Part shown: positions 198 to 60,916 of the stretch, in pieces | Layout: each line of letters starts with the position of its first letter | How positions within the stretch are numbered: position 1 is the first letter of the stretch | NCBI GenBank assembly: GCA_964449965.1 | Contig: CAYVEO010000006.1 | Span: 308 to 64,307, forward strand | Source of the DNA: an uncultured Planctomycetia bacterium | GTDB lineage: Bacteria > Omnitrophota > Gorgyraeia > CAYVEO01 | DNA: 64,000 bases | Direction of reading: 5' to 3' | The notes under the pieces: model-generated | Seen by the model: the letters and a program-made list of their open reading frames with translations, nothing else | Databases searched by the model: none | What the model was told of the DNA's origin: nothing | Translations under genes and position numbers: made by a program

Positions 198-913
198 AAA
201 ATTTATTTGGCTTGTTAATAAATTCGCGCATCGGCAAATCCATATTCAGGCGTGACTTCTCGGATACTGAGAAAGACCGCTCTGAACGGGTTTATAATAA
301 TTTCTTCTTCCATATCTATCCCGTAAAGGTAGGGAAACACGGCGTTAAGACATGTTACACCTTTTGCTTAGGAGGAATAAGTTTTCTGTTATTTATCATC
401 CTGACTATTACTGGATTTTTACTCATGTTCTATTATCACCCGTCTGTCCCCAGGGCATACGAGGATATGAAGGATATACAATATGTAGTGTCATCAGGGA
501 TTTTCTTGAGGAATATGCACAGGTGGTCTGCGCACCTCATGGTCCTGACAGTCTTTTTACATCTATGCCGTGTATTTTTTACCGCATCTTATCGTCCGCC
601 GAGAGAATTTAACTGGATAGTTGGCGTCTTGCTGCTCGTCCTGACGTTAGGCTTGAGTTTCACGGGATATTTACTACCATGGGACCAACTCTCTTACTGG
701 GCTATTACGGTTGGGACCACAATGGCAGGCTATGCACCGATGATAGGTAATAAGATGAGGTTCTTGCTCCTCGGAGGAAATGTGGTAAACGAGAATGCAT
801 TATTAAGATTTTATGTCTTACACTGTATCTTGCTTCCTGCCTTGATTGTTGTCCTCATGGGGATCCATTTCTGGAGGGTAAGGAAGGATGGAGGGATATC
901 TAAGCCGTTGTAA
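194..913 (+). CDS. cytochrome b6-type subunit (N-terminal b-heme domain) of a Rieske/cyt b complex
   Basis: 239 aa, four hydrophobic helices with conserved His pairs ([15 protein letters not shown] ... [16 protein letters not shown]) typical of cytochrome b/b6. Directly coupled to the Rieske gene. Confidence 0.85.
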
Positions 914-1629
914 TGGAAGATAAAACAAAAGAATCTAACGAAATATTTCCCAAAGACCCTGACAAGACCTATGGTCTTATGGAAGTGGTAAAGGGAACAA
1001 CGCCGCTCGTTGAAAAAGAGCCGGAAGATACAATCTTTACCTTCCCATGGCTTATCATAAAAGAGGTAATCTGCTGTTTTCTCGTAATAGCCGCTTTAGC
1101 AATTATCTCCATCTATTTTGACGCCCCTCTGGAAGAATTGGCAAATCCATCTAAGACGCCCAATCCTGCCAAGGCGCCATGGTATTTCCTGGGATTACAA
1201 GAGATGCTGCATTACTTCCCGCCTGTTGTGGCAGGTGTGTTATTGCCTACGTTAATCGTTATAGCACTTATAGTAATCCCATACTTTGAGATTAATATAA
1301 AGAGGGAAGGACTATGGAAAAAAAACAGGGAACCAACACTATTGCTCCTATTCTTGAGTGTCCTGGCAGTATCCATATTCTTATGGCGATTCCACGTCTG
1401 GCCTGTCATCATTCCCACGTGGCTTATTACAGTTCTTATGCTTATCCCTCTCTTTTTACATAAAGAGAAAGGCATAATAGGATGGTTCTCGAAAAGGAGT
1501 CTTGCTGAATGGATAATGGCATGGTTCATTCTTGTGGCGTTTACTTTGACTATTATAGGGATATTCTTCCGCGGACCTGGATGGGAATGGGTCTGGCCAT
1601 GGAAGGAAGGGCTATACTATAGTTTATGA
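913..1629 (+). CDS. cyt b C-terminal / subunit IV (PetD)-like polytopic membrane subunit
   Basis: 238 aa multi-TM protein. The APWYFLGLQEML segment resembles the PEWY region of the cyt b C-terminal half/PetD. Its start overlaps the cyt b stop (ATGA-type coupling at 910-915). Confidence 0.65.
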   Translation: MEDKTKESNEIFPKDPDKTYGLMEVVKGTTPLVEKEPEDTIFTFPWLIIKEVICCFLVIAALAIISIYFDAPLEELANPSKTPNPAKAPWYFLGLQEMLHYFPPVVAGVLLPTLIVIALIVIPYFEINIKREGLWKKNREPTLLLLFLSVLAVSIFLWRFHVWPVIIPTWLITVLMLIPLFLHKEKGIIGWFSKRSLAEWIMAWFILVAFTLTIIGIFFRGPGWEWVWPWKEGLYYSL

Positions 1630-2408
1630 ATAACGAGATTAAATTATGGACATGGTTTGGTATAACAGGGATAATCTGTCTTGTCACACTCGCAGTCTCA
1701 CCTGCCAAGGACTATTTTAAGGAGTGGAAAAGATACCAGAAGGTTTTTTATGAAAAGGTCCAAATGGGAAATAGCCATATCGCCGTAAAACAGATAGTCG
1801 TTGATGAATTAGGAAAGGTTGACAGGTGTGTAACATGCCATCTTGGCGTGGAAGACCCAAATCTCAAAACCGAAGAGAATCCTTATAAATATCATACTAA
1901 CCATGGACGGCATCCCTTTGAAAGGTTTGGGTGCACCATCTGTCATGAAGGGCAGGGCAGGGCAACTACTGTCAGGGATGCACATGGCTATAATAAACAT
2001 TGGGAAAAACCTATGCTGCCTTTATATTATATTCAAGCCTCATGCGGCAAGTGCCATTTTGAGACCGAATTAAAAGGAGCAACCCTTTTGACAGAGGGCA
2101 GAAGATTATATAAAGAAAAGTCCTGTGACCTCTGTCACAAGATTGGAGGGATTGGAGAAAGCGTTGGACCTGAGATTACTTACGAAGGTTCCAAAACGAT
2201 AGATGATTTTAACTTTGGGAATGACATGGATATTGAACGGACCCCGTGGGCATGGCACTTTGCCCATTTAAAGAACCCGCAGATTTTTGACCCAAACTCT
2301 CAGATGCCAAATCTTGAGTTATCAGATGAAGAGGCGAAGGCGCTGACTGTCTATATACTCAGTCTTACCAAAGAAAAGATTCCTTATGAATACAGGAGAG
2401 GACTATGA
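1626..2408 (+). CDS. membrane-anchored tetraheme c-type cytochrome
   Basis: N-terminal TM helix. Four CxxCH motifs (CVTCH, CTICH, CGKCH, CDLCH). Overlaps the upstream gene by 4 nt. Confidence 0.7.
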   Translation: MNNEIKLWTWFGITGIICLVTLAVSPAKDYFKEWKRYQKVFYEKVQMGNSHIAVKQIVVDELGKVDRCVTCHLGVEDPNLKTEENPYKYHTNHGRHPFERFGCTICHEGQGRATTVRDAHGYNKHWEKPMLPLYYIQASCGKCHFETELKGATLLTEGRRLYKEKSCDLCHKIGGIGESVGPEITYEGSKTIDDFNFGNDMDIERTPWAWHFAHLKNPQIFDPNSQMPNLELSDEEAKALTVYILSLTKEKIPYEYRRGL

Positions 2409-3550
2409 TGAAAAGTTTTGTATTTAGTATGGTCTTATATTTATTATTCGCTGCAAATAGTTATGTAATTGCAGCAGAAGATGTGGATTATAAAATAGAA
2501 GAATCTAACTATACATCAAGCCTTGTCTGCGGGAAGTGCCATGAGGCGATTTATAGTAAGTGGAAGAACTCTATGCATGCACAATCCATCCTTGACCCCA
2601 TTTTTAATCTGGCTTATATGCAGGCTGTCCAGGAGTCAGGTGAAGAGGCAAAAAAATTATGCCTGAGCTGTCATGCCCCGGCTGTCAGGGCAAATAATGA
2701 CTATGAATTAAATAAGGCGATTACTAACGAAGGCATCATGTGTGATTTCTGCCATACCGTTAAAGGGGTGGATTTGAATAATCAGGAGAACCCTTACATT
2801 ATAGATGTGGGTGAGGTTAAAAGGAGCACCATAAAGGATGCAGAGTCTCCTGTCCATAAAGTGGAACATTCAGAATTACATGCGAGGTCAGAATTTTGTG
2901 CCGGCTGCCACGAATTTAATAAGGATAAGGTTACCATAATAGGGACTTATAGCGAATGGAAGGAAGGACCGTATTCAAAAGAAGGCGTTCAATGTCAGGA
3001 TTGCCACATGCCGGCAATTAAGGGTTTGATAGTAAGGTCAGACATAAAGGAGGTTACGGGTGAGATTAATTTACACGATTTACAAGGGGGCCATTCAGTA
3101 GAACAACTTCGTAAGGCAATGAGGGTCAGGATAGTAGATACGGCACGGTCCGGCGACGGGGTCACGGTCAAGGTGGAGATAACAAATATTGGTTCAGGTC
3201 ATACGGTCCCTACAGGGCTGCCATCAAGGGAATTAGTTCTACAGATGATAGTCAAAGACTCAAAGGGAAGGATTATATCACGGGATGAGAAGATATACAA
3301 GAAGGTATTGGCAGATGAGAATGGAAATGAACTAAAGAAGGACCATGAGTTTTTCTTAAAAGGCAGGACCATACTTTCAGATAACAGGATTAAACCCCGC
3401 GAGACTAAGGAAACGGTATTTTATTTTTCCTATCCGAAACGTGAGGAATTGTCTGTTGAGACAAAACTTTTCTACCGCTATGAGCCAGAGGTTATTTCAA
3501 CACAGGAGATGTTCATTGAGATGGGGGGTGATAGCAGGGTAATTAGATAA
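2405..3550 (+). CDS. secreted pentaheme c-type cytochrome
   Basis: Signal peptide. Five CxxCH motifs (CGKCH, CLSCH, CDFCH, CAGCH, CQDCH). Overlaps the upstream gene by 4 nt. Confidence 0.7.
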   Translation: MMKSFVFSMVLYLLFAANSYVIAAEDVDYKIEESNYTSSLVCGKCHEAIYSKWKNSMHAQSILDPIFNLAYMQAVQESGEEAKKLCLSCHAPAVRANNDYELNKAITNEGIMCDFCHTVKGVDLNNQENPYIIDVGEVKRSTIKDAESPVHKVEHSELHARSEFCAGCHEFNKDKVTIIGTYSEWKEGPYSKEGVQCQDCHMPAIKGLIVRSDIKEVTGEINLHDLQGGHSVEQLRKAMRVRIVDTARSGDGVTVKVEITNIGSGHTVPTGLPSRELVLQMIVKDSKGRIISRDEKIYKKVLADENGNELKKDHEFFLKGRTILSDNRIKPRETKETVFYFSYPKREELSVETKLFYRYEPEVISTQEMFIEMGGDSRVIR

Positions 3551-3554
3551 AGAA

Positions 3555-3589
3555 GTTTACAGTTTACAGTTAACAGTTTACAGTATAAG
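3555..3589. promoter_or_regulatory. tandem heptamer array GTTTACA-GTTTACA-GTTAACA-GTTTACA immediately upstream of the RBS (AGAGGGGGAA) of the 3604 gene
   Basis: Read directly from the sequence. A related array containing the identical 19-mer ACAGTTAACAGTTTACAGT recurs at 33390-33408. Confidence 0.4.
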
Positions 3590-3603
3590 AAGAGGGGGAA
3601 AAT

Positions 3604-4104
3604 ATGAATAAGGTTTGGTTTGGTTTGGCTGTTGTTGGGGTAATTGGGGTATTTGTCACTCGTGGTAATGCAGAAGAGTCCCATAAGTATATAGGGGTAA
3701 AGAAGTGTAAGATGTGTCATATGCAGCAATATAAGATCTGGGAAGGGTTAAAGATGGCGAAGGCATTAGACCTGTTAAAGGCTGAGAATAATACGAGAAC
3801 CAAAAAAGATGAGACCCAGAACCCGGAATGTATCAAATGTCACGTAACAGGTTTTGGTAAAGGCGGCTATGAGATTGGTAAAGCTGACCCGGACCTTGCC
3901 AATGTCCAGTGCGAGGCATGCCATGGACCCGGCAGCGACTACGGGAAGATGGATGTTATGAAGGATAAGGAGAAATCAACCGCAACAGGACTTGTGATTC
4001 CAACTGAGGCTACCTGTAAGGAATGTCATACGCCCGAGTTTAGCCCGGACTTTGATTTTGCAAAGGCATACAAGGAGATAGACCACAAAAAGAAAACAGA
4101 ATAA
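3604..4104 (+). CDS. secreted tetraheme c-type cytochrome
   Basis: Signal peptide (LAVVGVIGVFVTRGNA). Four CxxCH motifs (CKMCH, CIKCH, CEACH, CKECH). Confidence 0.75.
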   Translation: MNKVWFGLAVVGVIGVFVTRGNAEESHKYIGVKKCKMCHMQQYKIWEGLKMAKALDLLKAENNTRTKKDETQNPECIKCHVTGFGKGGYEIGKADPDLANVQCEACHGPGSDYGKMDVMKDKEKSTATGLVIPTEATCKECHTPEFSPDFDFAKAYKEIDHKKKTE

Positions 4105-4196: not shown

Positions 4197-5298
4197 TCTA
4201 ATTAAAGGAATCAATTATTTGAAAAAATCCTCAAACTGGCTTACCAATAATCCCATCTGGAAGTTTTTCTCTTCTATAAATGCAGGGATAACGCTGCTTT
4301 CTATTATTGCAATCGCCTCCTGCATAGGAACTATTATCCCGCAGGATTTAACTAAGGATGAATATTTATCTAAATATAGCCGTGAAGCATACGATATTCT
4401 AAATGCGTTTAAACTTACAACATTGTTCCATTCATGGTGGTTCATCACATTATTAGTCCTCTTGATACTGAACCTCGCGGTAGCAACCATCAATAGGTTT
4501 TCCTTTAAACTGAAATCAATCGGTTTTTTAATCACGCATTCCAGTATAATAATTATCATAATTGGTGCTATCATAGGAAATGTTAATGGAGAGAGAGGCT
4601 TCTTATGGCTCAAAGAAGGGGAAACCAAATCCACGTTCTCTATAGGGGATGTTTCCAGGAAATTGAATTTTAACCTTCGCCTGAAAGACTTTATATTAGA
4701 GCACTATAACTCTGATTCCCAGAAAATTACAGTGAGCGTAGTCAAGGAAGGGAAGAGTTTTGAATACGTATATCCGGTAGAGATAGGAAAGGAATACAAC
4801 GTTCAGGGTACGGATTATAAAATCAAGATGCTTCGTTACGTACCGGATTTCGTAATAGATATTGAGACTAAGGAGGCCGTAACCAGAACAGATGAGCCTA
4901 ATAATCCCGCCTTACAGGTTGAAATTATTTCACCTGAAGGTAACGTCTCTAACAGATGGCTTTTTGCCAGATACCCTGGTATGCATGGTGATAAGGAAAA
5001 GGATATAGAAATTGTATATCACTGGGCACAAGAGAGAATAAAGGATTTCAAGAGTGAACTGGAAGTATTAGAAGGAGATAGGCTCGTCCAATCTAAAATG
5101 ATAGAGGTAAACCATCCCTTAGAGTATAAGGGCTATGTCTTCTATCAGGCAAGTTACAATCCTCAGGATTTGACTGTTACAGGACTTCAGGTAACAAAAG
5201 ACCCCGGCGTGCCTGTGGTTTATACGGGGTTTATTATGTTAGTGGGGGGATTAGTAGTTGTGTTCTATATAAATCCATTGCTGAGAATAAAAAAATGA
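4180..5298 (+). CDS. ccsB: cytochrome c biogenesis protein ResB/Ccs1 (system II), short form
   Basis: N-terminal IWKFFSS...LLSIIAIASCIGTIIPQ helix typical of ResB. Large periplasmic domain and a C-terminal TM. Immediately upstream of ccsA. Confidence 0.65.
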   Translation: MSVAKSLIKGINYLKKSSNWLTNNPIWKFFSSINAGITLLSIIAIASCIGTIIPQDLTKDEYLSKYSREAYDILNAFKLTTLFHSWWFITLLVLLILNLAVATINRFSFKLKSIGFLITHSSIIIIIIGAIIGNVNGERGFLWLKEGETKSTFSIGDVSRKLNFNLRLKDFILEHYNSDSQKITVSVVKEGKSFEYVYPVEIGKEYNVQGTDYKIKMLRYVPDFVIDIETKEAVTRTDEPNNPALQVEIISPEGNVSNRWLFARYPGMHGDKEKDIEIVYHWAQERIKDFKSELEVLEGDRLVQSKMIEVNHPLEYKGYVFYQASYNPQDLTVTGLQVTKDPGVPVVYTGFIMLVGGLVVVFYINPLLRIKK

Positions 5299-6326: not shown

Positions 6327-6752
6327 ATGCCTCTTCAAGACAAATATGCCTACTTTTTACATATAAATGTGATGTTCGTTGTCCTTTCTCTTTTAAATTT
6401 AACTGTCGCGGGCTGCGAAAAGGGTCCAGGGTCTATAAAACTTATCATCCGTCACATAGAAAACAAGGATTTTGCAGAGGAGCATGTTGTGAAATTCGGG
6501 GAAGATTTTTTTATCTCAGATACAGACTATTCTGCTAAGGTGATTAAATTCATTCCGGACTTCGTGATGAATGAAAAAACAAAAAAGGTGTCTTCTCGTT
6601 CTAAGAAACCGAATAACCCTGCGGTCATGGTGAGGGTGTATTATAAGGGCAAGTTTTTGTATGACTCATGGGTATTGCAAAAGGCTGATACTATCCACTA
6701 TGTCCGAAAACCAGGTTTCTATTTTGAGTTTATTGGATTGGAGACTAAATGA
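6327..6752 (+). CDS. lipoprotein carrying a ResB-like periplasmic segment (ORF-track start 6291; start 6327 MPLQDKYAYF preferred)
   Basis: Lipobox LTVAGC. The segment KFIPDFVMNEKTKKVSSRSKKPNNPAVMVRVY parallels RYVPDFVIDIETKEAVTRTDEPNNPALQVEII of the ResB at 4180. Confidence 0.45.
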   Translation: MPLQDKYAYFLHINVMFVVLSLLNLTVAGCEKGPGSIKLIIRHIENKDFAEEHVVKFGEDFFISDTDYSAKVIKFIPDFVMNEKTKKVSSRSKKPNNPAVMVRVYYKGKFLYDSWVLQKADTIHYVRKPGFYFEFIGLETK

Positions 6753-9700
6753 GTTGCAGAAAGACGTTACTAATAACGATTGCTTTTTCTCTTATTTTTG
6801 CAATATCTTCTGACGATGGATTTGCTGCCAGGCGTGCAAAAAAGAAAGAATGTCTGGAATGTCATGCCGAGAAAAAACCGCAGCTTAAGGAAAAGTTTGT
6901 TCACAAACCTTTCTCAAAGAAGGAATGCCTTAAGTGTCATGAAACCCATGGGTTTACCAATGCCCTTAAATTAAAGAAATGGGATGCAGAACTTTGTTTT
7001 GACTGCCATTCTGACAAAAAAGGAGAGTTTACCAAATCTCACGTCCACCCGGCAATTACCAAAGGCAGGTGCTGGGACTGCCATGACCCGCATGCCTCTT
7101 CCAATCCTAAATTGCTTGTCAAGACAGACAGTGACCTGTGCTACGCTTGCCATAGTAAAGAAAAGACGGAATTTGCAAAGGAGAATATTCACCCTCTGGT
7201 GAAGGACGGCAAATGTTTGACCTGCCATATGCCTCATTCTTCAGAGAATGAATCACAATTGAGGAATACCGGCAATGGAAATTGCACCTCATGTCATGAG
7301 ACAGCAAAGGAAGAATTTGTCTCAGCCCACGCAGGGTATGATGCGGGAAAAATCAACTGCACAGACTGCCACAACCCGCATTCATCCAGTCATAAGAAAC
7401 TTTTTAAGGAAAGTGTGCATGTGCCTGTATCAGAGAAGAAGTGTGATACCTGCCATGATGCTGTTAGTTCCGAAGAGCCTCTTCGCTTAAAGATTCCCGG
7501 AAACCGGTTATGCACTATATGCCATTTAGACAAAGAGAAGGATTTAGGGAAAAAGCACGTTCATGCGCCTTTTTCATCAGGTCCGTGTTTAGACTGCCAT
7601 ACGCCGCATGCCTCTGGTAATAAAGATTTGCTTATTAAAAAAGAAAAAGACGTATGTCTATCCTGCCACGATACAGAAAAATCCCAGATGAAGTTGGCAC
7701 ATACCCATACGCCTTTCAGGGACGGGGAGTGCAGTTCCTGTCATAATCCGCATGCAAGTAATGAAGAAAAACTTCTTTCCGATTCTGCGGATAAATTATG
7801 TTTCTCATGCCATAAGGCAGAAGAAGAAAGGTTAAAAAGTTCTCATACCCATAAGCCTTTCAAAGAAGGGGAGTGTCTTTCATGTCATAACCCTCATGCC
7901 TCAGAGAATAATTATCAGTTGATAAAGGTTGGAAAGGAACTATGTCTAAAGTGCCATACGGTAACAGAAGAGAAAAAGAAAAAATATACACATGACCCGT
8001 TTCAGATAGGCGATTGCAGCAGCTGCCATGACAGTCATGCGAGTGACTTTGATGGTCAGTTAAAGAAGGCAGATGGTGAAGTATGTTACACATGCCATAA
8101 AAATGAAATGGAGGAGCTATCAAAGAAACACCCTCATACACCTGCAAAAGAAGGTAAATGTCTGGGCTGCCATAAGCCGCATTCATCAGACGAAAGAAAT
8201 CTTCTAACTACTTCTCCTGATAACCTATGCTATACCTGTCACAGTGCCTTAGTCCAAAAATTTACCAAGAAGCACATCCATAAGCCGGTTCAGGAAAAAG
8301 ATTGCCTGAAATGCCATAACCCGCATTCAGGGGATAATAAGTTCCAGGTAAAGAAGGAGGGTGCTGACCTTTGCTTTTCATGCCATGCAGGAATAGAATC
8401 ACAATTCAAGAAAGAATCTGTCCATTTTCCTGTCAAACAGGGAAGGTGCAGTACCTGTCATAACTCTCATGCTTCAGAAGAGGCGCTCTTGCTGAATAAT
8501 CCTTTATCCAAATTATGCTCTACATGTCACGTCCAGGATAAAAAGTTTCAGGATGCACATTTAAACTTTGCGGTAGAAGCAGCAGATTGTTTAGGATGCC
8601 ATAATCCCCATGCCTCAGATGCTAAGAAGGGCCTTCCAAATGAGTATATCCATCCGCCTTATGAAAAGAAAGACTGTAAGACCTGCCATGAGGAAGAAAA
8701 TGGATTGGCTAAGACGGCGTTAAAAAAGGATATTGCCCGGGTATGCTTAAGTTGTCATACCAGCGAGAAAGAGATATTTACGAAAGACGTTGTCCACACG
8801 CCATTCAAGGAAGGCAAGTGCCCCACATGTCATAATCCACATACTTCCAAAAACAAATCCCTGATGAAGGATACAGGGAGCCAATTGTGTTTTAACTGCC
8901 ATAAAGATAAACTCAAGGAGTTTTCAAAGGGATATGCACATACGCCTGTCCAAGAGGGTAAATGCACAGGCTGTCACCAGGCTCATGGCTCTGGTGATAA
9001 AGCCTTGTTGACAAATACAGGGGCTAAATTATGTTATACCTGCCATAAAGACTTTGAAAACCGCCTTAATAAACCTGTAGTTCATAATCCCGTGAAGAAA
9101 GGTGAATGCCTTACGTGCCACAGCCCTCACGTCTCAGATAATCCTGGCGGTATCAGGAAACCTGAAACAGAATTATGCCTGTCCTGCCATGATAGTTCGT
9201 CAGGTCCATTCAAATCTGCACATGCTACCTATCCGGTTGAAAAAGCCAAGTGCGTCACATGTCATGACCCCCATTCCTCTGACTCTAAAGGACTATTTCG
9301 TTCCCATCTCCATGCGCCTGTGGGCGAGAAGAAATGTAATTTATGCCATGCACCGGCTCAAGGAGTAAAGCCGTTCAGTCTGGTAAAGCCTGAGGATGAA
9401 CTTTGCTATAGTTGCCATGGTGATAAGGTCCAGGCATTTAAAAAGGGACACGTCCATGCACCGGTAGCGTCCGGAGGATGCACGACATGCCATGCCCCGC
9501 ATGCCTCAGATTATAAATTCCTGCTGGAAGATACCGGTGGTATGCAGTGTTTTAAATGCCATACAGAGGCAAAGAAAAAATTTGACGCCAAATACGTCCA
9601 TACCCCTGTAGCAAAGGGTGAATGCACATCCTGCCATAACCCGCACAGCACTGATTTTCCAAATCTTACAATGAAAGAGAGTATAGAACTATGTAACTCA

Positions 9701-9877
9701 TGCCATCCTACCCAGGGAACATTTGTCCATCCTGTGGGTGAAAAATATATAGACCCGAGGACAGGTTCTATGCTCACATGCCTCTCATGCCACAACCCGC
9801 ACGGGACAGAGAATGAATATGTCCTGTATTACAAGAAAGATAGGGAGTTGTGTATACAATGTCACAAGGTAGAGTAA
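6749..9877 (+). CDS. giant multiheme c-type cytochrome (about 42 CxxCH motifs in 1042 aa)
   Basis: Signal peptide. I counted 42 CxxCH motifs, arranged in a repeating unit of about 25 aa (K..C..CH.PH.S....LL) reminiscent of polymerised c7-type domains. Confidence 0.85.
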   Translation: MSCRKTLLITIAFSLIFAISSDDGFAARRAKKKECLECHAEKKPQLKEKFVHKPFSKKECLKCHETHGFTNALKLKKWDAELCFDCHSDKKGEFTKSHVHPAITKGRCWDCHDPHASSNPKLLVKTDSDLCYACHSKEKTEFAKENIHPLVKDGKCLTCHMPHSSENESQLRNTGNGNCTSCHETAKEEFVSAHAGYDAGKINCTDCHNPHSSSHKKLFKESVHVPVSEKKCDTCHDAVSSEEPLRLKIPGNRLCTICHLDKEKDLGKKHVHAPFSSGPCLDCHTPHASGNKDLLIKKEKDVCLSCHDTEKSQMKLAHTHTPFRDGECSSCHNPHASNEEKLLSDSADKLCFSCHKAEEERLKSSHTHKPFKEGECLSCHNPHASENNYQLIKVGKELCLKCHTVTEEKKKKYTHDPFQIGDCSSCHDSHASDFDGQLKKADGEVCYTCHKNEMEELSKKHPHTPAKEGKCLGCHKPHSSDERNLLTTSPDNLCYTCHSALVQKFTKKHIHKPVQEKDCLKCHNPHSGDNKFQVKKEGADLCFSCHAGIESQFKKESVHFPVKQGRCSTCHNSHASEEALLLNNPLSKLCSTCHVQDKKFQDAHLNFAVEAADCLGCHNPHASDAKKGLPNEYIHPPYEKKDCKTCHEEENGLAKTALKKDIARVCLSCHTSEKEIFTKDVVHTPFKEGKCPTCHNPHTSKNKSLMKDTGSQLCFNCHKDKLKEFSKGYAHTPVQEGKCTGCHQAHGSGDKALLTNTGAKLCYTCHKDFENRLNKPVVHNPVKKGECLTCHSPHVSDNPGGIRKPETELCLSCHDSSSGPFKSAHATYPVEKAKCVTCHDPHSSDSKGLFRSHLHAPVGEKKCNLCHAPAQGVKPFSLVKPEDELCYSCHGDKVQAFKKGHVHAPVASGGCTTCHAPHASDYKFLLEDTGGMQCFKCHTEAKKKFDAKYVHTPVAKGECTSCHNPHSTDFPNLTMKESIELCNSCHPTQGTFVHPVGEKYIDPRTGSMLTCLSCHNPHGTENEYVLYYKKDRELCIQCHKVE

Positions 9878-29785: not shown

Positions 29786-30529
29786 ATGAATAAGTTCATG
29801 GTGGTTATTACTATAGCAGCCATTTGTATCACACCATCTCTTGCATTCGGCTACAATACCATGTGGCAGGAGAGAGGGGAAAAGCCGTGTCTTCAATGTC
29901 ACGGTGAAAAGATGGAGGGATTGTTCAAGAAGAAGAACGTCCATTTTCCATTCGCTCAAAAAGAATGTGAATCATGCCATGACCCAAAGGCATTTTCATT
30001 AGTAGCCCAGGGTTCTGAACTATGTTTTGGCTGCCACAGTGATAAGGCTGATGAATTCAAAAAAGGGCATACCCATACCCCTGTCAAAAACGGTCAGTGT
30101 ATTAAGTGCCACAGCCCCCATGCCTCAGATAATAAATATCAATTAACCAATGATGTTCCAAAACTCTGTTTTTCCTGCCATAAAGAAGACAGATTTACAA
30201 AGGTTAAATTTACCCATTTCCCTGTAGAAGAGGGCAATTGCCTCTTATGCCACGGCCATCATAATGGGATAGATAGAAGTAACCTTAAAAGCGCTGTCTC
30301 AGACCTATGCACCACCTGCCATGATAAGGATAGCATGATAATCCCGCACCCCACAGATGTCATTCCAACTGATAAGATAGTAATCCCTAAGGATAGCCAG
30401 ATGAAGTTAGATGAGAAAGGTATGGTTACTTGTGTGACCTGCCATAACCAGCATGGCTCAAATCTTGCATTCTTTTTGAAAGAGAGTATGGAAGATGGGG
30501 CAATGTGTTATAAGTGCCACAAGAAATGA
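29786..30529 (+). CDS. nonaheme c-type cytochrome
   Basis: Signal peptide. Nine CxxCH motifs (CLQCH, CESCH, CFGCH, CIKCH, CFSCH, CLLCH, CTTCH, CVTCH, CYKCH). Confidence 0.75.
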   Translation: MNKFMVVITIAAICITPSLAFGYNTMWQERGEKPCLQCHGEKMEGLFKKKNVHFPFAQKECESCHDPKAFSLVAQGSELCFGCHSDKADEFKKGHTHTPVKNGQCIKCHSPHASDNKYQLTNDVPKLCFSCHKEDRFTKVKFTHFPVEEGNCLLCHGHHNGIDRSNLKSAVSDLCTTCHDKDSMIIPHPTDVIPTDKIVIPKDSQMKLDEKGMVTCVTCHNQHGSNLAFFLKESMEDGAMCYKCHKK

Positions 30530-30560
30530 TTACACAAATTAAAAATGTTTAGATGTCTTA

Positions 30561-32354: not shown

Positions 32355-33380
32355 TTGAAAAGAAGGACAATAGTGATATTCTTAGGGGTGTTAATTCTGG
32401 GACTTTTATCCTCAGGCTGTAAAGAATGGCCAATAAAGTTCAGCCATAAGAACCACCTCAAGCAGAGAATAGAGTGTGAATCCTGCCATGCCATTAAGCC
32501 AGGATACGAACTCCCTGCAATACCTGATATGACAGTCTGTACCACATGCCATGATGTTGATAAAGAGGCAGGTTTAAAAGAAATCAAAGAACATAAGACT
32601 GCACCAGCCGAGTGTGGTAAATGCCATATAGGAATACCAGGTGAGAAGAAGATAGAGTGGGCAAAATGGTGTGAATTCCCGGACGTCAGATTCTCGCATG
32701 AAAATCACTATAAAGAACGTCATATAGACTGTAAAATCTGCCATGAGGGAATAGATAAAGTAGATAAGCCAACCATGCTACAGGTTCCCCGTATGGAAAC
32801 CTGTATGGGATGTCATGAAAAGAATAAGAAAGAAATTAACTGCCAGCAATGCCATAGCGAGAAGGCAAAAGAGACCCGTCCACAGGACCATCTGGTTGGT
32901 TGGCAGAAGAGACATGGTGATTTAATAAAAGAAGGGATTGACCCGCGCGGTGAGGCAAAATGTTACCGTTGTCACAGAAAAGATTCCTGCGTTGACTGCC
33001 ATCAGAATGAAGCACCGGCTGACCATACCAACCACTGGAGACAGCGCGGGCATGGGATTGCATCGGAGATTGACAGGGACAGGTGTGCAAAGTGTCATCA
33101 GATGGACGAGTGTGTGCGGTGCCACGAACAGACTGCACCGCGGAATCATACCGCAGGGTGGAGTGGAAGCAGTCAGAGGCATTGTTCAGTCTGCCACTGG
33201 CCCCTTAATGCTGTTGGTTGTTCTGCGTGTCATAAAGGAACGCCAGGACACGATGCTGCGCCGGACAGGCCGGGCGGGACTGCACACACATCGGGAAGCG
33301 ATTGCAGGGCATGTCATATGCCCGGTACCGGGTTACCACACCCGGATGACGGTGGGAGTTGTGAACGTTGCCATAGATGA
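32355..33380 (+). CDS. lipoprotein multiheme c-type cytochrome (14 CxxCH in 341 aa)
   Basis: Lipobox LLSSGC. I counted 14 CxxCH motifs. Paralogous to 44178-45050 in the N-terminal region (NHL.QRIECESCH versus NHLERGLECPTCH). Confidence 0.8.
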   Translation: MKRRTIVIFLGVLILGLLSSGCKEWPIKFSHKNHLKQRIECESCHAIKPGYELPAIPDMTVCTTCHDVDKEAGLKEIKEHKTAPAECGKCHIGIPGEKKIEWAKWCEFPDVRFSHENHYKERHIDCKICHEGIDKVDKPTMLQVPRMETCMGCHEKNKKEINCQQCHSEKAKETRPQDHLVGWQKRHGDLIKEGIDPRGEAKCYRCHRKDSCVDCHQNEAPADHTNHWRQRGHGIASEIDRDRCAKCHQMDECVRCHEQTAPRNHTAGWSGSSQRHCSVCHWPLNAVGCSACHKGTPGHDAAPDRPGGTAHTSGSDCRACHMPGTGLPHPDDGGSCERCHR

Positions 33381-33387
33381 AATAAAG

Positions 33388-33437
33388 TTGACAGTTAACA
33401 GTTTACAGTTGAAATGCCATAGTTGTTTACTGTAAAT
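33388..33437. promoter_or_regulatory. heptamer array GTTGACA-GTTAACA-GTTTACA-GTTGAAA plus inverted copy ACTGTAAA (TTTACAGT-N19-ACTGTAAA dyad)
   Basis: Shares the 19-mer ACAGTTAACAGTTTACAGT with 3565-3583. Sits between two cytochrome genes upstream of the 33480 RBS. Confidence 0.4.
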
Positions 33438-33479
33438 TAGAAAGTCATGGCTAAATTTATGTAAAAGGAGGTTTTTGAA

Positions 33480-36293
33480 ATGTTTAAAGATGAATTTAGA
33501 GAACGGTGTTTAATAATAATTGCATTGTTATTGGCCGTAGGATTAGCCCTGGCGTGCGGCGGTGGTGGAGGAGGTGACAAAGGAGAGGAGACCACGGGCA
33601 AGGTCTCAGGGACTGTTACAGGGAGTGGGGGACTGGCAAATGTAACAGTATCCACAGACAAAGGTGACCATACCACGACCACAGATAGCAGCGGTAATTA
33701 TACCCTCTCAGGCGTTGAACCCAATACATATACCCTGCGCGCCTCTTTGAATAATTATGAGACAACAACTGCTATTGATAAGGTAATAACTGCCGGCAAT
33801 ACCACGTCACAGAATTTTGAACTTTCTACTTTCAATGACAAACCATATGTAGGTTCTGTGCGCTGTAAGGTATGCCATAATGCCCTGTATCAATCATGGA
33901 AAGATACCCTGCATACCAAGAAACTGCGTTATCCAACAGACTCACCGGGAGTAGTGGCGGATAGCGATGCTGATGGGACAGATGATTTTAAAGAAGGGTT
34001 AGACCTTTCAACTGACAGCAGTTTCAGCGCCTACGGAACCAATGCCCCTGTTTTAGGTTATTCAGATGGAAACTATACTGTTAAGATTGGCCAGGTTACC
34101 TATACAGTCAATAAGACCATAGGTGGTAAGTGGAAACAGAGATACGTCACACAGCAGGGAAATAGCCACTATATCTTACCAGTCCACTATAATGTAGAAG
34201 CCAGGGACTGGACAACATATGATGCATCAAACTGGTATGACAGTTCTAACCTTCCTATATATGGTCCAGGTGATACATTTGTCTCCAAGGGAAATCAGAA
34301 TGATGCATATGAAAGGCGATGCGGCGGATGCCATGTTTCAGACTATGTGCCGAATTACATTGCTTCTACAGGGGAATGGCAGCACAGTTATCTTGAAATG
34401 CCTATCGGCTGCGAAATGTGTCATGGACCTGGTGGTAAGCATATCGTTACCCAGAGTCCGGAAGATATTATAGACCCCGGAAATTCAAGTGACCTTACCA
34501 CTGATCTGGCAAACCAGGTCTGCGGAATGTGCCATACCCGCGGGACAGGCGAAGCAGGCAGCGGGGCCCCCTCTAATTATGATTTCCCATTTGATACCAC
34601 ATTACAGAGGATTTTCAGACCAGGCGATACATTAACTAATTTCTATACTCATACAACAACATCCAGTGAGTATTGGGGACTAGATTTTCTTTCATCAACT
34701 TATCTGATTAATTCTACCAATGTCTTAGGTAAGAACTTTGTGACCTCTAAAGGTCATCATCAGCAGTATCTTGACCTGTATAACGGACCTCATGCCGCGG
34801 CTGGTCTTTCCTGTTTTGATTGCCATGACCCTCATGGTGCAACACAGGAAGGACAGATAATTACCAGCCGTAGTGACAATGACGGCGAGAATATTACAAT
34901 CCAAACCGGGACTGATAATAATACACTATGCCTTTCCTGTCATGCTGAGGATACTCCTTTTACAACAGTGACCAATGAAATGGTAAGAGATGTTTCGTCC
35001 GGTACAGTAAACGATACCTTGAAAAATGCTGTATTAGACCATATGGGTGAAGAGGCAGTGATGCGTGATGAGGATGAGATTACTTATGACCCTGAAGGGA
35101 CAGGCGTGGGCAGATGCACAAAATGTCATATGCCAAAGACTGCAAAGACTGCGGCCGATTGGTTAGATGATGAGGCCGGGTTTGATAAAGGGGACTTACA
35201 CTCCCATACATTCCGGGTTATATTTCCCAATGTGAACCGCGTCCTTGGTCTTACTATGACAAATTCATGCACAGAATGTCACGCCACAACAAGTGAACAT
35301 TTCAAAGAGGCGTGGCAGTGGTCAATCTCAGGACATGCAGATTTGAGTGCAAGTCATTATAAATATGCCACTGGGTCAACCCGTACGTCCTGTGTGAGAT
35401 GCCATTCCGGTGAAGGTTTTGTTGACAGCATCGCTGATGGTGTGGGCGGCAAATCTGACTCTACCGAGGAGGCTACTCTTAGAACAGACTATAAACTCCA
35501 TTCCTGCTACACCTGCCATGACCCGACAGCGAGTTCGCCCACAGCACGTCGTTCTATTCCTACAGTGAAATTCCCGTCTGACGTCACAAAAACACAGGCT
35601 GAGGTTGGGGATTCTGCTTTATGTATCTCCTGCCATCAGTATAGAACTGCAGGAGCTACAGCAGTTGCAGACGCGATAGCCAGCCGCGACAGCGGCGGTA
35701 GTTTCAGCACAGTCGCAGGAAAGGTTAATCCGCATTATCGCGGCGGAGCCGCCATGTTGTATGGTTCAGGCGTGGACGGCGGATATGAATATACAGGCAA
35801 GACCTATTCTAACGGTATAACCGCGCACCAGACCACGAACTGTGTTGGCTGTCACATGGCTGATGCCAGCAGCAATAATGTCGGCGGCCATACATGGGCT
35901 ATGCACACCGCGGATGAGAGCGAACTTAACAACGCTATCTGTGCCACATGCCATACAGGCGGCGTGTCGTCATTTGACACATTCCGTTCAGGCAGCACAG
36001 GAAAGGATTATGACGGTGACGGGAACAGTACAGAGGGCATTCAGGAAGAGATTGCAGGTTTAAAGACCGCCCTTTTAACCCAGTTGAGCACTCTGGGTAT
36101 AACCAGCACCACCATTTATCCTTACTGGAGCGGGACCGCCTGGGTTGATAAAGCAATAAAGGGCGCCTATACCTATAATTTTGTTGACCATGACCCCGGG
36201 GCAGGGATTCATAACTTTGCCTATGCAATTCAACTCTTACGTGATGCTATAGAAGATATTAGCGGGGCAGCTCCAGCAGGTGTTCGTCCCTAA
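33480..36293 (+). CDS. large lipoprotein multiheme c-type cytochrome (13 CxxCH) with N-terminal Gly linker and Ig/PEGA-like domain
   Basis: Lipobox LALACGGGGGG. N-terminal beta-sandwich-like segment (GKVSGTVTGSGGLANVTVSTDKGDHTTTTDSSGNYTLSGVEPNTYTLRAS). 13 CxxCH motifs spread over about 800 aa, consistent with an extracellular decaheme-type cytochrome. Confidence 0.75.
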   Translation: MFKDEFRERCLIIIALLLAVGLALACGGGGGGDKGEETTGKVSGTVTGSGGLANVTVSTDKGDHTTTTDSSGNYTLSGVEPNTYTLRASLNNYETTTAIDKVITAGNTTSQNFELSTFNDKPYVGSVRCKVCHNALYQSWKDTLHTKKLRYPTDSPGVVADSDADGTDDFKEGLDLSTDSSFSAYGTNAPVLGYSDGNYTVKIGQVTYTVNKTIGGKWKQRYVTQQGNSHYILPVHYNVEARDWTTYDASNWYDSSNLPIYGPGDTFVSKGNQNDAYERRCGGCHVSDYVPNYIASTGEWQHSYLEMPIGCEMCHGPGGKHIVTQSPEDIIDPGNSSDLTTDLANQVCGMCHTRGTGEAGSGAPSNYDFPFDTTLQRIFRPGDTLTNFYTHTTTSSEYWGLDFLSSTYLINSTNVLGKNFVTSKGHHQQYLDLYNGPHAAAGLSCFDCHDPHGATQEGQIITSRSDNDGENITIQTGTDNNTLCLSCHAEDTPFTTVTNEMVRDVSSGTVNDTLKNAVLDHMGEEAVMRDEDEITYDPEGTGVGRCTKCHMPKTAKTAADWLDDEAGFDKGDLHSHTFRVIFPNVNRVLGLTMTNSCTECHATTSEHFKEAWQWSISGHADLSASHYKYATGSTRTSCVRCHSGEGFVDSIADGVGGKSDSTEEATLRTDYKLHSCYTCHDPTASSPTARRSIPTVKFPSDVTKTQAEVGDSALCISCHQYRTAGATAVADAIASRDSGGSFSTVAGKVNPHYRGGAAMLYGSGVDGGYEYTGKTYSNGITAHQTTNCVGCHMADASSNNVGGHTWAMHTADESELNNAICATCHTGGVSSFDTFRSGSTGKDYDGDGNSTEGIQEEIAGLKTALLTQLSTLGITSTTIYPYWSGTAWVDKAIKGAYTYNFVDHDPGAGIHNFAYAIQLLRDAIEDISGAAPAGVRP

Positions 36294-59745: not shown

Positions 59746-60876
59746 ATGAAAGGTATTTCAGTTTTGACTTGGTTGTCAGTCAGTATTTTGGTCTTAACGA
59801 CTGCTTCCTGGGCAGCTGAATCTGACGTGGATAAGTTACTTGACCTTCTTGTAGAAAAGGGAGTGGTTAACAAAGATGATGCGGCAGGATTCAGGGCAGA
59901 TTTAGCAGTGAAAAAACAGGGGGAAAAGGAGACACAAAAAGAGTTTAATGTGATTTCAGGTAAGCCGATTAAGATAAGCGGCTATACCCAACTACGTTAC
60001 CAATTTCTTGAAGAGGATAAAAAGATAGATTCATTTGATATCAGAAGGGCAAGACTTGATATCAAGGGCGACGTAACGGAGAGGTTTGACTACCGTCTTC
60101 AGACAGACTTTGCGGGTTCTTCTGCTAAAGTACTTGATGCCACCATTGGCTATAAGTTTAATCCTTATCTGAAATTCACAGGGGGTCAATTTAAGATTCC
60201 ATTCAGCCAGGAGAACCTGATTTCAAGTCCGAAGTTAGAAACGATTAATCGTTCGCAAGTAGTAGAGGCATTGGTAGCACGAGGCAAGGATGTTATAGGT
60301 AACCAGAATGGACGGGATATTGGAATCCAGGTAGGCGGAAGTTCCCTGCAGTCAGGGGATAGATACCTTTTAGATTACGCATTAGGCGTATTTAATGGAG
60401 CAGGTATTAACACTTCAGATACCAATGAACAGAAGGACTTCGTGGGAAGACTGGTTTTTCATCCTTTAAAGGGGCTGGATATAGGTGGTTCTTACTATGA
60501 TGGAAAGGGTATTTGGGGGACGTCTTCAACAGGTCAAAACAGGGATAGAATTGGTGGTGAGTTTGCATATCAATATGAATCCCTGTCCTTGAAGAGTGAA
60601 TATATTACAGGGGAAGATGGAGCAACCGAAAAAGACGGCTGGTATCTGCAGGCTGGTTACTTCTTTATCCCAAAAAAATTACAGGGGGTATTGAAGTATG
60701 ACACCTATGACCCTGATACCAGTGTGGGTAGTGACGTAACTGATGTTTCTACCTTTGGCGTCAACTGGTATTTCAACAAGTGGGCATTCTTGCAGGTGAA
60801 CTATGAATTGAAAGATGAAGAAGGGAAAGAAAAAGACAACAATACCTTGGTTGGGCAGTTGACTTCACAATTCTGA
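59746..60876 (+). CDS. phosphate-selective porin (OprO/OprP family)
   Basis: Signal peptide. ISGYTQLRYQF...FDIRRARLDIKGDV...FKIPFSQENLISS and a C-terminal ...LTSQF match the Porin_O_P family. Directly upstream of pstS. Confidence 0.8.
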   Translation: MKGISVLTWLSVSILVLTTASWAAESDVDKLLDLLVEKGVVNKDDAAGFRADLAVKKQGEKETQKEFNVISGKPIKISGYTQLRYQFLEEDKKIDSFDIRRARLDIKGDVTERFDYRLQTDFAGSSAKVLDATIGYKFNPYLKFTGGQFKIPFSQENLISSPKLETINRSQVVEALVARGKDVIGNQNGRDIGIQVGGSSLQSGDRYLLDYALGVFNGAGINTSDTNEQKDFVGRLVFHPLKGLDIGGSYYDGKGIWGTSSTGQNRDRIGGEFAYQYESLSLKSEYITGEDGATEKDGWYLQAGYFFIPKKLQGVLKYDTYDPDTSVGSDVTDVSTFGVNWYFNKWAFLQVNYELKDEEGKEKDNNTLVGQLTSQF

Positions 60877-60880
60877 TAAC

Positions 60881-60916
60881 ACAGATTACACAGATGAAAG
60901 AACAGATTACACAGAT
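60881..60916. promoter_or_regulatory. four ACAGAT hexamers (as two copies of ACAGATTACACAGAT) between the porin gene and pstS, a possible PhoB-family regulator site
   Basis: Hexamers at 60881, 60890, 60902 and 60911 (spacing 9/12/9). Lie 18 nt upstream of the pstS RBS. Confidence 0.3.

Follow-up and report, generated by a model that had tools for sequence, protein, structure and literature searches.

GTTNACA heptamer arrays between cytochrome genes of an uncultured Omnitrophota lineage and their likeness to dispersed heptanucleotide repeats

Known heptanucleotide repeats and the two arrays of the window

Heptanucleotide repeats of filamentous cyanobacteria were reportedly described by Mazel et al. 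in 1990 as short tandemly repeated repetitive (STRR) sequences. Two arrays of comparable build, made up of GTTNACA units and located between multihaem cytochrome genes, are the subject of this report; they lie in a stretch of 64,000 nucleotides of contig CAYVEO010000006.1 from an uncultured bacterium (in the following called the window), and we are inclined to regard them as copies of a small dispersed element. Several classes of heptanucleotide repeats invite comparison. The long simple sequence repeats of Mrazek, as far as the summary in PMC4679880 goes, consist of units of 5-11 nt, with heptamers being dominant. Marine Beggiatoaceae as well as some Cyanobacteria and Bacteroidetes contain TAACTGA direct repeats, which occur in 2-6 copies, partly as "split" sets combined with related heptamers, are often found just upstream of start codons lacking a ribosome-binding site, and are predicted to be unstructured; the matching spacer of close relatives is devoid of these repeats in some Bacteroidetes, and they are kept in Cyanothece strains 8801 and 8802 (MacGregor, 2015, PMC4679880). 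The GGGNATC heptamers of Xanthomonas and Nostoc are preferentially arranged in four units located in the space separating aligned open reading frames (ORFs), at less than 50 bp from stop codons, and are mostly transcribed (Rehm et al., 2015, PMC4692102). Finally, the ctxAB promoter of Vibrio cholerae contains protein-binding tandem TTTTGAT heptads (bioRxiv 10.1101/2021.05.14.444153). The literature leaves the function of heptanucleotide repeats unresolved, that of the TAACTGA repeats being only hypothesised (PMC4679880; bioRxiv 10.1101/2022.06.06.494920).

A direct reading of site 1 yields four perfect units on the + strand in the order GTTTACA GTTTACA GTTAACA GTTTACA (3555-3582; N = T, T, A, T), followed in phase by a degenerate fifth unit, GTATAAG (3583-3589, +), which agrees with GTTTACA in 4/7 bases. 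The array reads identically in the compared sequences L001 and L002, and Tandem Repeats Finder delimits it as 3554-3584, with a period of 7, 4.4 copies and 91% matches. It starts 4 nt after the TAA stop codon (3548-3550) of the gene for a 381-aa multihaem cytochrome with five CXXCH motifs (2405-3550, +) and is followed by the gene for a 166-aa c554-like tetrahaem cytochrome with four such motifs (3604-4104, +). From the end of the array at 3582, the distance is 9 nt to the Shine-Dalgarno sequence GAGGGGG of the latter gene (3592-3598, +), which lies 3' of the array without overlap and in a region kept in relatives together with the start, and 21 nt to the ATG at 3604. This is the arrangement proposed in the initial annotation of this DNA, i.e. 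four heptamers between the stop codon of the pentahaem gene and the ribosome-binding site of the tetrahaem gene. No structure is predicted for the RNA of site 1 (-2.2 kcal/mol, z +0.72 versus shuffles), which contains 71% A+U.

Site 2 starts with three perfect units, GTTGACA GTTAACA GTTTACA (33387-33407, +; N = G, A, T; identical in L123) and continues with a degenerate fourth unit, GTTGAAA (33408-33414, +, direct reading). Another degenerate unit in the same phase is found at 33422-33438 (+) together with an inverted segment (GTTGTTTACTGTAAATT), and the inverted ACTGTAAA occupies 33429-33436. The period found by Tandem Repeats Finder is again 7, with 3.6 copies. The upstream gene codes for a 341-aa c7/c3-like cytochrome with 14 CXXCH motifs (32355-33380, +), whose stop codon (33378-33380) precedes the array by 6 nt, and the downstream gene for a 937-aa multihaem cytochrome with 13 CXXCH motifs (33480-36293, ATG at 33480, +), whose Shine-Dalgarno sequence AAGGAGG is found at 33465-33471; the array is situated 65 nt 5' of this start. 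The position between two cytochrome genes and the inverted segment had been correctly recognized before, but the array begins one base earlier than first reported, at 33387. A weak 10-bp hairpin may form between 33429-33438 and 33400-33409, with a predicted energy (-10.3 kcal/mol, z -0.99) that is not significant. A five-codon mini-ORF, ATG GCT AAA TTT ATG TAA (33447-33464), abuts the AAGGAGG in front of the 937-aa cytochrome gene and is probably due to chance.

Both arrays are real repeat copies and exceed chance expectation. They share the 19-mer ACAGTTAACAGTTTACAGT, for which the claimed identity proved exact (3566-3584 and 33391-33409). A two-unit pattern with at most one mismatch matches the window six times, always within the two sites, compared to an expectation of 0.21, and none of 100 shuffles reaches six matches; exactly these two period-7 arrays are recorded in the 64 kb by Tandem Repeats Finder. 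Moreover, both recur base for base in GCA_016193245.1, SRR4343430 and SRR4343428, three further and independent assemblies of this organism, and therefore do not represent assembly artefacts. The window has a GC content of 41.5% and carries nearly all of its genes on the + strand. The NCBI names attached to proteins identical to those of the window are Candidatus Omnitrophica or Omnitrophota, the latter also applying to the protein identical to the 166-aa c554-like cytochrome.

Orthologous spacers, further copies and class membership

In the relatives, the coding sequences flanking the arrays are conserved up to the stop codon and then again from the ribosome-binding site, and the spacers differ. 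At the junction corresponding to site 1, a relative from Hainich groundwater (L124), whose tetrahaem protein is 92% identical, exhibits a 40-nt T-rich spacer devoid of any array, the coding match running to the stop codon and resuming at the Shine-Dalgarno sequence. Another relative (L128/L253, 85% identical) contains at this position a 110-nt spacer with a strong palindrome resembling repetitive extragenic palindromic (REP) sequences (-38.9 kcal/mol, z -4.3). At the junction corresponding to site 2, a palindrome of the same REP-like family is present in the 96-nt spacer of the Hainich relative, with the same gene order (L131, 87% identical), and a close relative represented by 21 kb of DNA in the same gene order (L256) has a spacer of only 23 nt, which constitutes an empty site; heptamer arrays are missing from all of these 21 kb.

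Two further copies were found in the organism represented by L253 and L258, two independent assemblies which are 99.6-99.9% identical to each other and whose coding DNA is ~80% identical to that of the window. Both are located on a 15-kb contig, each between the N-terminal and C-terminal cytochrome b genes of one of two bc-type operons. Starting from the preceding stop codon, the copies read TAA-GAAA-GTGGACA GTTAACA GTTTACA GTTCAAA (L253-A) and TAG-AAGAA-GTGAACA GTTAAAA GTTTACA GTTAACA GTTCAC, followed by three units of GTAAACA (L253-B). A 31-mer of site 2 (33384-33414, AAAGTTGACAGTTAACAGTTTACAGTTGAAA) is identical to L253-A (L253:2246-2276) in 29/31 bases, as represented by the alignment AAAGT[T/G]GACAGTTAACAGTTTACAGTT[G/C]AAA, and the 19-mer of the window arrays also occurs in L253-A. 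The core of the element has the order GT(T/G)GACA-GTTAACA-GTTTACA-GTT(G/C)AAA. At the junction orthologous to L253-B, the two genes overlap as TAATG in the window (911-915) and are separated by a 6-nt gap in L124, so L253-B represents a 69-nt insertion between formerly translationally coupled genes. The arrays end 15 nt (L253-A) and 3 nt (L253-B) before the ATG of the C-terminal cytochrome b genes, neither of which has a recognizable Shine-Dalgarno sequence, so that their translation has to be initiated or re-initiated across the array. The predicted fold of L253-A is weak (z -1.7), and that of L253-B is a moderate hairpin due to an inverted arm (-14.7 kcal/mol, z -2.7).

The presence or absence of arrays thus varies at three orthologous junctions, and the copy number is constant across the assemblies of each species (three for the species of the window, two for that of L253/L258). 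As judged from these alignments, array copies have been gained and lost at intercistronic junctions over short evolutionary time. The lack of arrays at orthologous sites, together with the occurrence of the same family at other junctions of a relative, therefore identifies a labile dispersed element. Altogether, the four copies known from this lineage belong to two species and occupy non-orthologous intercistronic sites, and they represent a single element family with one order of its units. That unlike units follow a common order at non-orthologous sites suggests the spread of a defined element of ~30 nt with local duplication, as at site 1, and not independent slippage. The earlier proposal of a small dispersed repeat specific to cytochrome operons is consequently upheld in its first part; its second part fails for GTTNACA arrays in general, as discussed below, but may apply within this lineage, where all four copies lie between cytochrome genes.

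By all these features, the arrays are members of an already known class of intergenic heptanucleotide tandem repeats (STRR-like, long simple sequence repeats, TAACTGA-type). In common with STRR sequences and long simple sequence repeats, they consist of at least three head-to-tail units of 7 nt, are mostly intergenic (all four copies of the lineage) and vary in presence between relatives; they may also share the recurrence at dispersed loci of a genome, two being known from the 64-kb window and two from the 15-kb contig of the relative. Because their host belongs to Candidatus Omnitrophota and is not a heterocystous or filamentous cyanobacterium, they are referred to as STRR-like and not as STRR. 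In addition, most cyanobacterial arrays repeat a single unit, whereas those described here mix unlike units in a fixed order common to the loci; their abundance, for comparison with STRR, is two copies per 64 kb. The TAACTGA repeats are similar in being composed of a few, partly mixed units (3-4 units with mixed N in our case), in the unstructured RNA, as predicted for site 1 with the hairpin of L253-B as an exception, in their taxonomic spread (Cyanobacteria, Bacteroidota and here a Chromatiales match, L024) and in their absence from the matching spacer of relatives. Their proximity to starts without a Shine-Dalgarno sequence is shared by L253-B and L253-A, at 3 and 15 nt, whereas sites 1 and 2 are found 21 and 65 nt before genes equipped with one. 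The unit itself is different: the reverse complement of GTTNACA, TGTNAAC (AACTGTN), has only AACTG in common with AACTGAT, and the AACTG strand is antisense to the genes here.

The GGGNATC repeats share the number of approximately four heptameric units and the position near stop codons between co-directional ORFs, but are G-rich and form G-quadruplexes, which is impossible for GTTNACA with its single G per unit. REP sequences, bacterial interspersed mosaic elements (BIME) and REPIN palindromes are likewise small dispersed elements of intercistronic spacers, and REP-like palindromes occupy the same two junctions in relatives; the likeness extends in part to the arrays themselves, as site 2 and L253-B contain a partial inverted arm. 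In contrast to REP and REPIN, however, site 1 and L253-A consist of direct repeats only, without a significant hairpin, and the hairpin of site 2 is no better than those of shuffles. A classification as miniature inverted-repeat transposable elements is not supported, since the comparison of filled and empty sites yielded neither terminal inverted repeats nor clear target-site duplications. The ctxAB operator of V. cholerae is also composed of directly tandem 7-bp units, in 3-8 copies, but it is reportedly located upstream of the promoter and varies in copy number between strains, whereas the arrays described here lie within operons, 3-21 nt from the next start in three of four copies, and are invariant between assemblies.

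Dispersal and possible functions of the element

On balance, we favour a small dispersed heptad element of ~30 nt, of which the arrays would be copies, representing tolerated, selfish or near-neutral insertions and not dedicated sites of a regulator. Such an element would land in, or survive only in, permissive positions between the upstream stop codon and the next ribosome-binding site or start, and the arrays would be transcribed within the polycistronic mRNA of the operon. Their persistence may be connected with the properties of an A/U-rich linker, which is only weakly structured in three copies (sites 1 and 2, L253-A) and would keep the downstream ribosome-binding site or start accessible, although L253-B folds. 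Any effect on expression would then be a by-product, such as looser translational coupling or the addition of -35-like hexamers. Copy-and-paste or gene conversion, with subsequent local slippage, are candidate routes of spread, and the fixed order of the unlike units argues against slippage of a purely local kind.

Small repeats seem to have colonised the spacers of this lineage generally, as suggested by two further families, the REP-like palindromes, which are apparently mobile, and a second small repeat, (A)CAGATTACACAGAT. A REP-like palindrome is present in L253 and missing from the nearly identical L258. The repeat (A)CAGATTACACAGAT matches the window four times, compared to an expectation of 0.42 (60875-60916 and 30528-30539), and extends from the stop codon of a porin O/P-like gene to just before the Shine-Dalgarno sequence of a PstS-like gene; the relative, too, carries two copies of its 12-mer, in the interval that separates the C-terminal cytochrome b gene from the cytochrome c gene (L253:7960-8004).

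Several observations weigh against a mere dispersal of neutral copies. A signature of mobilisation is missing: neither terminal inverted repeats nor clear target-site duplications were detected between filled and empty sites (window 911-915 versus L253:7172-7242; L256:11027-11049 versus window 33381-33479), and no transposase was identified. The 29/31 identity of non-orthologous copies between species with only ~80% coding identity would not be expected for a neutral sequence of 31 nt, indicating either that the copies spread recently from a source that is itself conserved or that the sequence is constrained. Furthermore, all four copies of the lineage, counted in the 64-kb window (two) and the 15-kb contig of the relative (two), lie on the sense strand 4-6 nt past a stop codon between cytochrome genes. 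The window and L258 have 25 co-directional spacers measuring 25 nt or more, six of which separate cytochrome genes; with four arrays placed randomly among these spacers, the enrichment at such junctions corresponds to a nominal p of 0.0012, a post hoc value to be read with the small sample in mind, with L253-A and L253-B possibly deriving from one event copied between paralogous operons, some spacers existing only through the insert, and the DNA of the relatives having been retrieved via cytochrome genes. The value for the window alone is p = 0.0053, again post hoc. Finally, the position of the element before genes without Shine-Dalgarno sequences (L253-A and L253-B) is at least compatible with initiation, which the element may even promote.

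If the arrays are indeed dispersed elements, the uncultivated groundwater Omnitrophota would add one more lineage to those with unexplained heptanucleotide repeats, i.e. cyanobacteria, Beggiatoaceae, Bacteroidota and Xanthomonas, and such arrays should not be taken for operators without caution. The case is of value for its clean filled and empty orthologous sites, including an insertion that splits a formerly overlapping cytochrome b pair and leaves the next cistron without a Shine-Dalgarno sequence. Its heterogeneous unit order, common to the species, points to either copy-and-paste spread or constraint, and bears on both the spread and the possible translational role of heptamer repeats.

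A doubtful alternative to the dispersal of near-neutral copies is a post-transcriptional cis-element, in which the arrays would serve as mRNA platform for ribosomal protein S1, a cold-shock or another RNA-binding protein, or as track for 70S re-initiation, setting the translation of the downstream gene and perhaps co-ordinating respiratory operons. The uniform sense orientation of the four copies within operons, all of them coding for cytochromes, is consistent with this proposal, as are the cross-species identity, which suggests constraint, and the predicted lack of structure and high A+U content of site 1; the lack of structure is not general, however, given the hairpin of L253-B. L253-A and L253-B, standing 15 and 3 nt before an ATG without Shine-Dalgarno sequence where array-free orthologues use an overlapping TAATG or a 6-nt gap, argue in the same direction, but sites 1 and 2 precede genes with strong Shine-Dalgarno sequences of their own, and the distance to the start codon ranges from 3 to 65 nt. 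A precedent has been proposed for the TAACTGA repeats of Beggiatoaceae (PMC4679880; bioRxiv 10.1101/2022.06.06.494920), but the cited precedents are hypotheses themselves. It further disagrees with such a role that orthologous sites lack the array in close relatives which presumably express the same genes, and that arrays of the same consensus elsewhere follow no rule of orientation.

A broader version of this proposal, which we consider unlikely, assumes that the ~31-nt element AAAGTKGACAGTTAACAGTTTACAGTTSAAA is itself kept by selection and not by selfish spread, being recognized by a factor that acts in trans and binds RNA or DNA. This factor would co-ordinate the expression, or the Shine-Dalgarno-independent re-initiation, of cytochrome cistrons, with the movable heptad cassettes forming a post-transcriptional regulon. 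This version is based on the 29/31 identity at non-orthologous junctions, on the constant placement on the sense strand and 4-6 nt past the stop codon, and on the fact that the element is so far known, within this Omnitrophota lineage, only from respiratory cytochrome and bc-complex operons. Should the link to cytochrome operons be upheld genome-wide, it would amount to a new way of wiring respiratory operons.

A function at the DNA level, either as operator for a repeat-recognizing regulator or as source of an internal promoter through the -35-like hexamer contained in each unit (TTGACA, TTTACA or TTAACA), appears improbable. Promoter-like matches do coincide in part with the arrays (3556-3584, TTTACA-17-TACAGT; 33395-33423, TTAACA-17-CATAGT with TG upstream; 33409-33438, TTGAAA-18-TAAATT), because each unit resembles a -35 element, but their numbers remain within the range of shuffles (3 versus 2.3 +/- 1.3 and 4 versus 1.5 +/- 1.1). 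The empty L256 site measures only 23 nt, so that a new promoter could have arisen with the insertion at site 2; the arrays of site 1, L253-A and L253-B, however, are separated from the ATG by 21, 15 and 3 nt, respectively, and a transcript would be leaderless or start inside the gene. In three of four copies, the 3-21 nt to the next start therefore leave no room for a promoter or an upstream operator, and sigma-70 promoters were rejected as an explanation, as the matches do not exceed shuffles and are mostly too near to start codons. The remark in the initial annotation that a 7-bp periodicity does not suit a dimeric operator was fair, yet regulators binding tandem heptads are known, as exemplified by the ctxAB repeats in the account of their V. 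cholerae promoter cited above. The arrays of the lineage nevertheless show no copy-number differences between the three and two assemblies of each species. A conserved binding array or operator, as suggested originally, is contradicted by the orthologous spacers of close relatives, which lack the arrays despite conserved flanking coding sequence; the absence from these intergenic regions had been named beforehand as a refuting observation, and the regulatory interpretation is accordingly not supported.

Processing of the mRNA is highly improbable as the purpose of the arrays. It would require that the single-stranded ACA and AG|UUU repeats, whose motifs we take to resemble, if loosely, the known cleavage preferences of MazF-like or RNase E-like endonucleases, are cut by such an enzyme to uncouple the stabilities of the cistrons, with the REP-like hairpins of the relatives fulfilling a related purpose. 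The intercistronic position directly past the stop codon, the weak or missing predicted structure in three of four copies and the strong hairpins at the same two junctions in relatives would fit this idea, whereas the looseness of the motif resemblance and the lack of conserved arrays in the relatives do not. Moreover, the REP-like elements of the lineage are themselves mobile, as seen from the comparison of L253 with the 99.6-99.9% identical L258, so the shared position may mark only permissive sites. Virtually no credence is left to the attenuator considered in the initial annotation, or to a terminator between the cytochrome genes, since the possible 10-bp hairpin of site 2 lacks both a G+C-rich stem and a U-tract, site 1 has no hairpin, the RNA structures of both sites are no stronger than those of shuffles, and a terminator scan of the + strand near both arrays gave no match. 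Rfam 15 did not return any match at either array, with the whole window searched at the gathering threshold and both sites at an E-value threshold; one sub-threshold chance match was located upstream, in coding sequence.

Distribution of GTTNACA arrays and other features of the window

To place the arrays in a wider context, species-representative genomes were scanned with the pattern (GTTNACA)x3 and metagenomes with ACAGTTNACAGTTTACAGT, each scan yielding at least 120 contigs. By a hand count of record titles, the genome matches listed comprise ~79 filamentous cyanobacteria and ~20 Bacteroidota, the remainder being scattered over Acidobacteriota, Poribacteria, Chloroflexota, Firmicutes, one Chromatiales (L024) and one Omnitrophota. 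Among these listed matches, GTTNACA units, mainly GTTGACA or GTTAACA, are abundant in Microcoleus, Rivularia, Tychonema, Nostoc and similar genera, and most arrays are runs of a single unit, again GTTGACA or GTTAACA, the variable base being G in 425, A in 79, C in 39 and T in 21 cases. The metagenome matches originate from many different samples and cover GC fractions of 0.30-0.68. Matching arrays are also contained in 47 contigs of IMG/VR, but the exact 20-mer is absent from the viral contigs.

According to a crude ORF calling, 113/131 and 76/91 arrays of the two sets (85-86%) are located outside of called ORFs. Between co-directional genes, sense and antisense arrays number 35 and 17 in the cyanobacteria-rich genome set and 12 and 18 in the metagenome set, and a general rule of orientation was rejected because of this inconsistency. 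An ORF with at least two CXXCH motifs occurs within 1.5 kb of the array in none of 240 loci from other organisms among the matches listed. Specificity for cytochrome operons as a general property of GTTNACA arrays is thereby refuted. A tblastn search of the window proteins against these 240 loci did not find relatives of the lineage.

Three other leads were followed without consequence. A contig from a peat metagenome (L232) shares 29 nt with site 1, but its array is antisense between a gene for a pyridoxal phosphate (PLP) enzyme and folE, without any link to cytochromes, and was taken as coincidence or class similarity. The molybdopterin oxidoreductase of the window did not lead to a more distant relative, as its best non-self homologue (65% identical) is encoded on a Planctomycetota contig of 68% GC without such repeats, and is uninformative. 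A CAGT core common to all co-resident heptamer arrays was considered; it is enriched (20% versus 5.7% expected), but is far from universal and was not used as an argument.

Some of the listed loci display peculiarities of their own. Approximately 10% of the GTTNACA arrays have an inverted partner array at a distance of 5-100 nt (e.g. L152, L171, L180, L041, L251, L192, L065 and L247); several of these pairs, mostly on high-GC contigs, enclose ~95 nt and resemble palindromic elements with heptad arms. In L250 (Ga0208413_1034033), plant-type telomere repeats of TTTAGGG grade into TTTACAG and TTTATAG units, suggesting that some metagenome matches probably represent eukaryotic telomeric or satellite DNA. 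The contig of Candidatus Omnitrophota bacterium STD1_220 (L036:4377-4835, JAQUPI010000037.1) contains an ORF of the PF05635 family, "23S rRNA-intervening sequence protein" (4430-4765, E 1e-37), which is located between two apparent tRNA genes, as judged by eye, and carries inverted heptamer arrays on its flanks. Of five PF05635-like tblastn matches among the 240 listed loci, three are preceded, less than 100 nt upstream, by a GTTNACA array of the same orientation (compare also L069 and L055), and heptamer arrays may be linked to small PF05635 cassettes.

The REP-like family of the relatives, GAGATTCTTCA(G/C)TC...GAAGAATCT, is represented at L128:3980-4055 (equal to L253:9985-10060), L131:2484-2530 and L256:13960-14025, and these positions include both array junctions. 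It is absent from the window, where matches to GATTCTTCAGTC remain at chance level. Another small repeat, a palindromic element of 90 nt (GTAGGGGCGACATTTATGACGCCC...CCCCTACAA), is found at L253:4073-4162 and missing at L258:3523, constituting an insertion polymorphism, with other copies at L258:9947-10052 and L256:16481-16625.

Apart from the arrays, the window contains, downstream of a molybdopterin oxidoreductase cluster, a molybdenum cofactor (Moco) riboswitch (RF01055, 50792-50915, +, 68.5 bits), which begins in the 72-nt spacer 5' of a radical-SAM MoaA-like gene and overlaps the listed GTG start of this gene (50827). The window is also unusually rich in multihaem cytochromes, with 14 ORFs containing at least three CXXCH motifs; a protein of 1042 aa (6749-9877, +) exhibits 42 of these motifs and 22 Paired_CXXCH_1 stretches.

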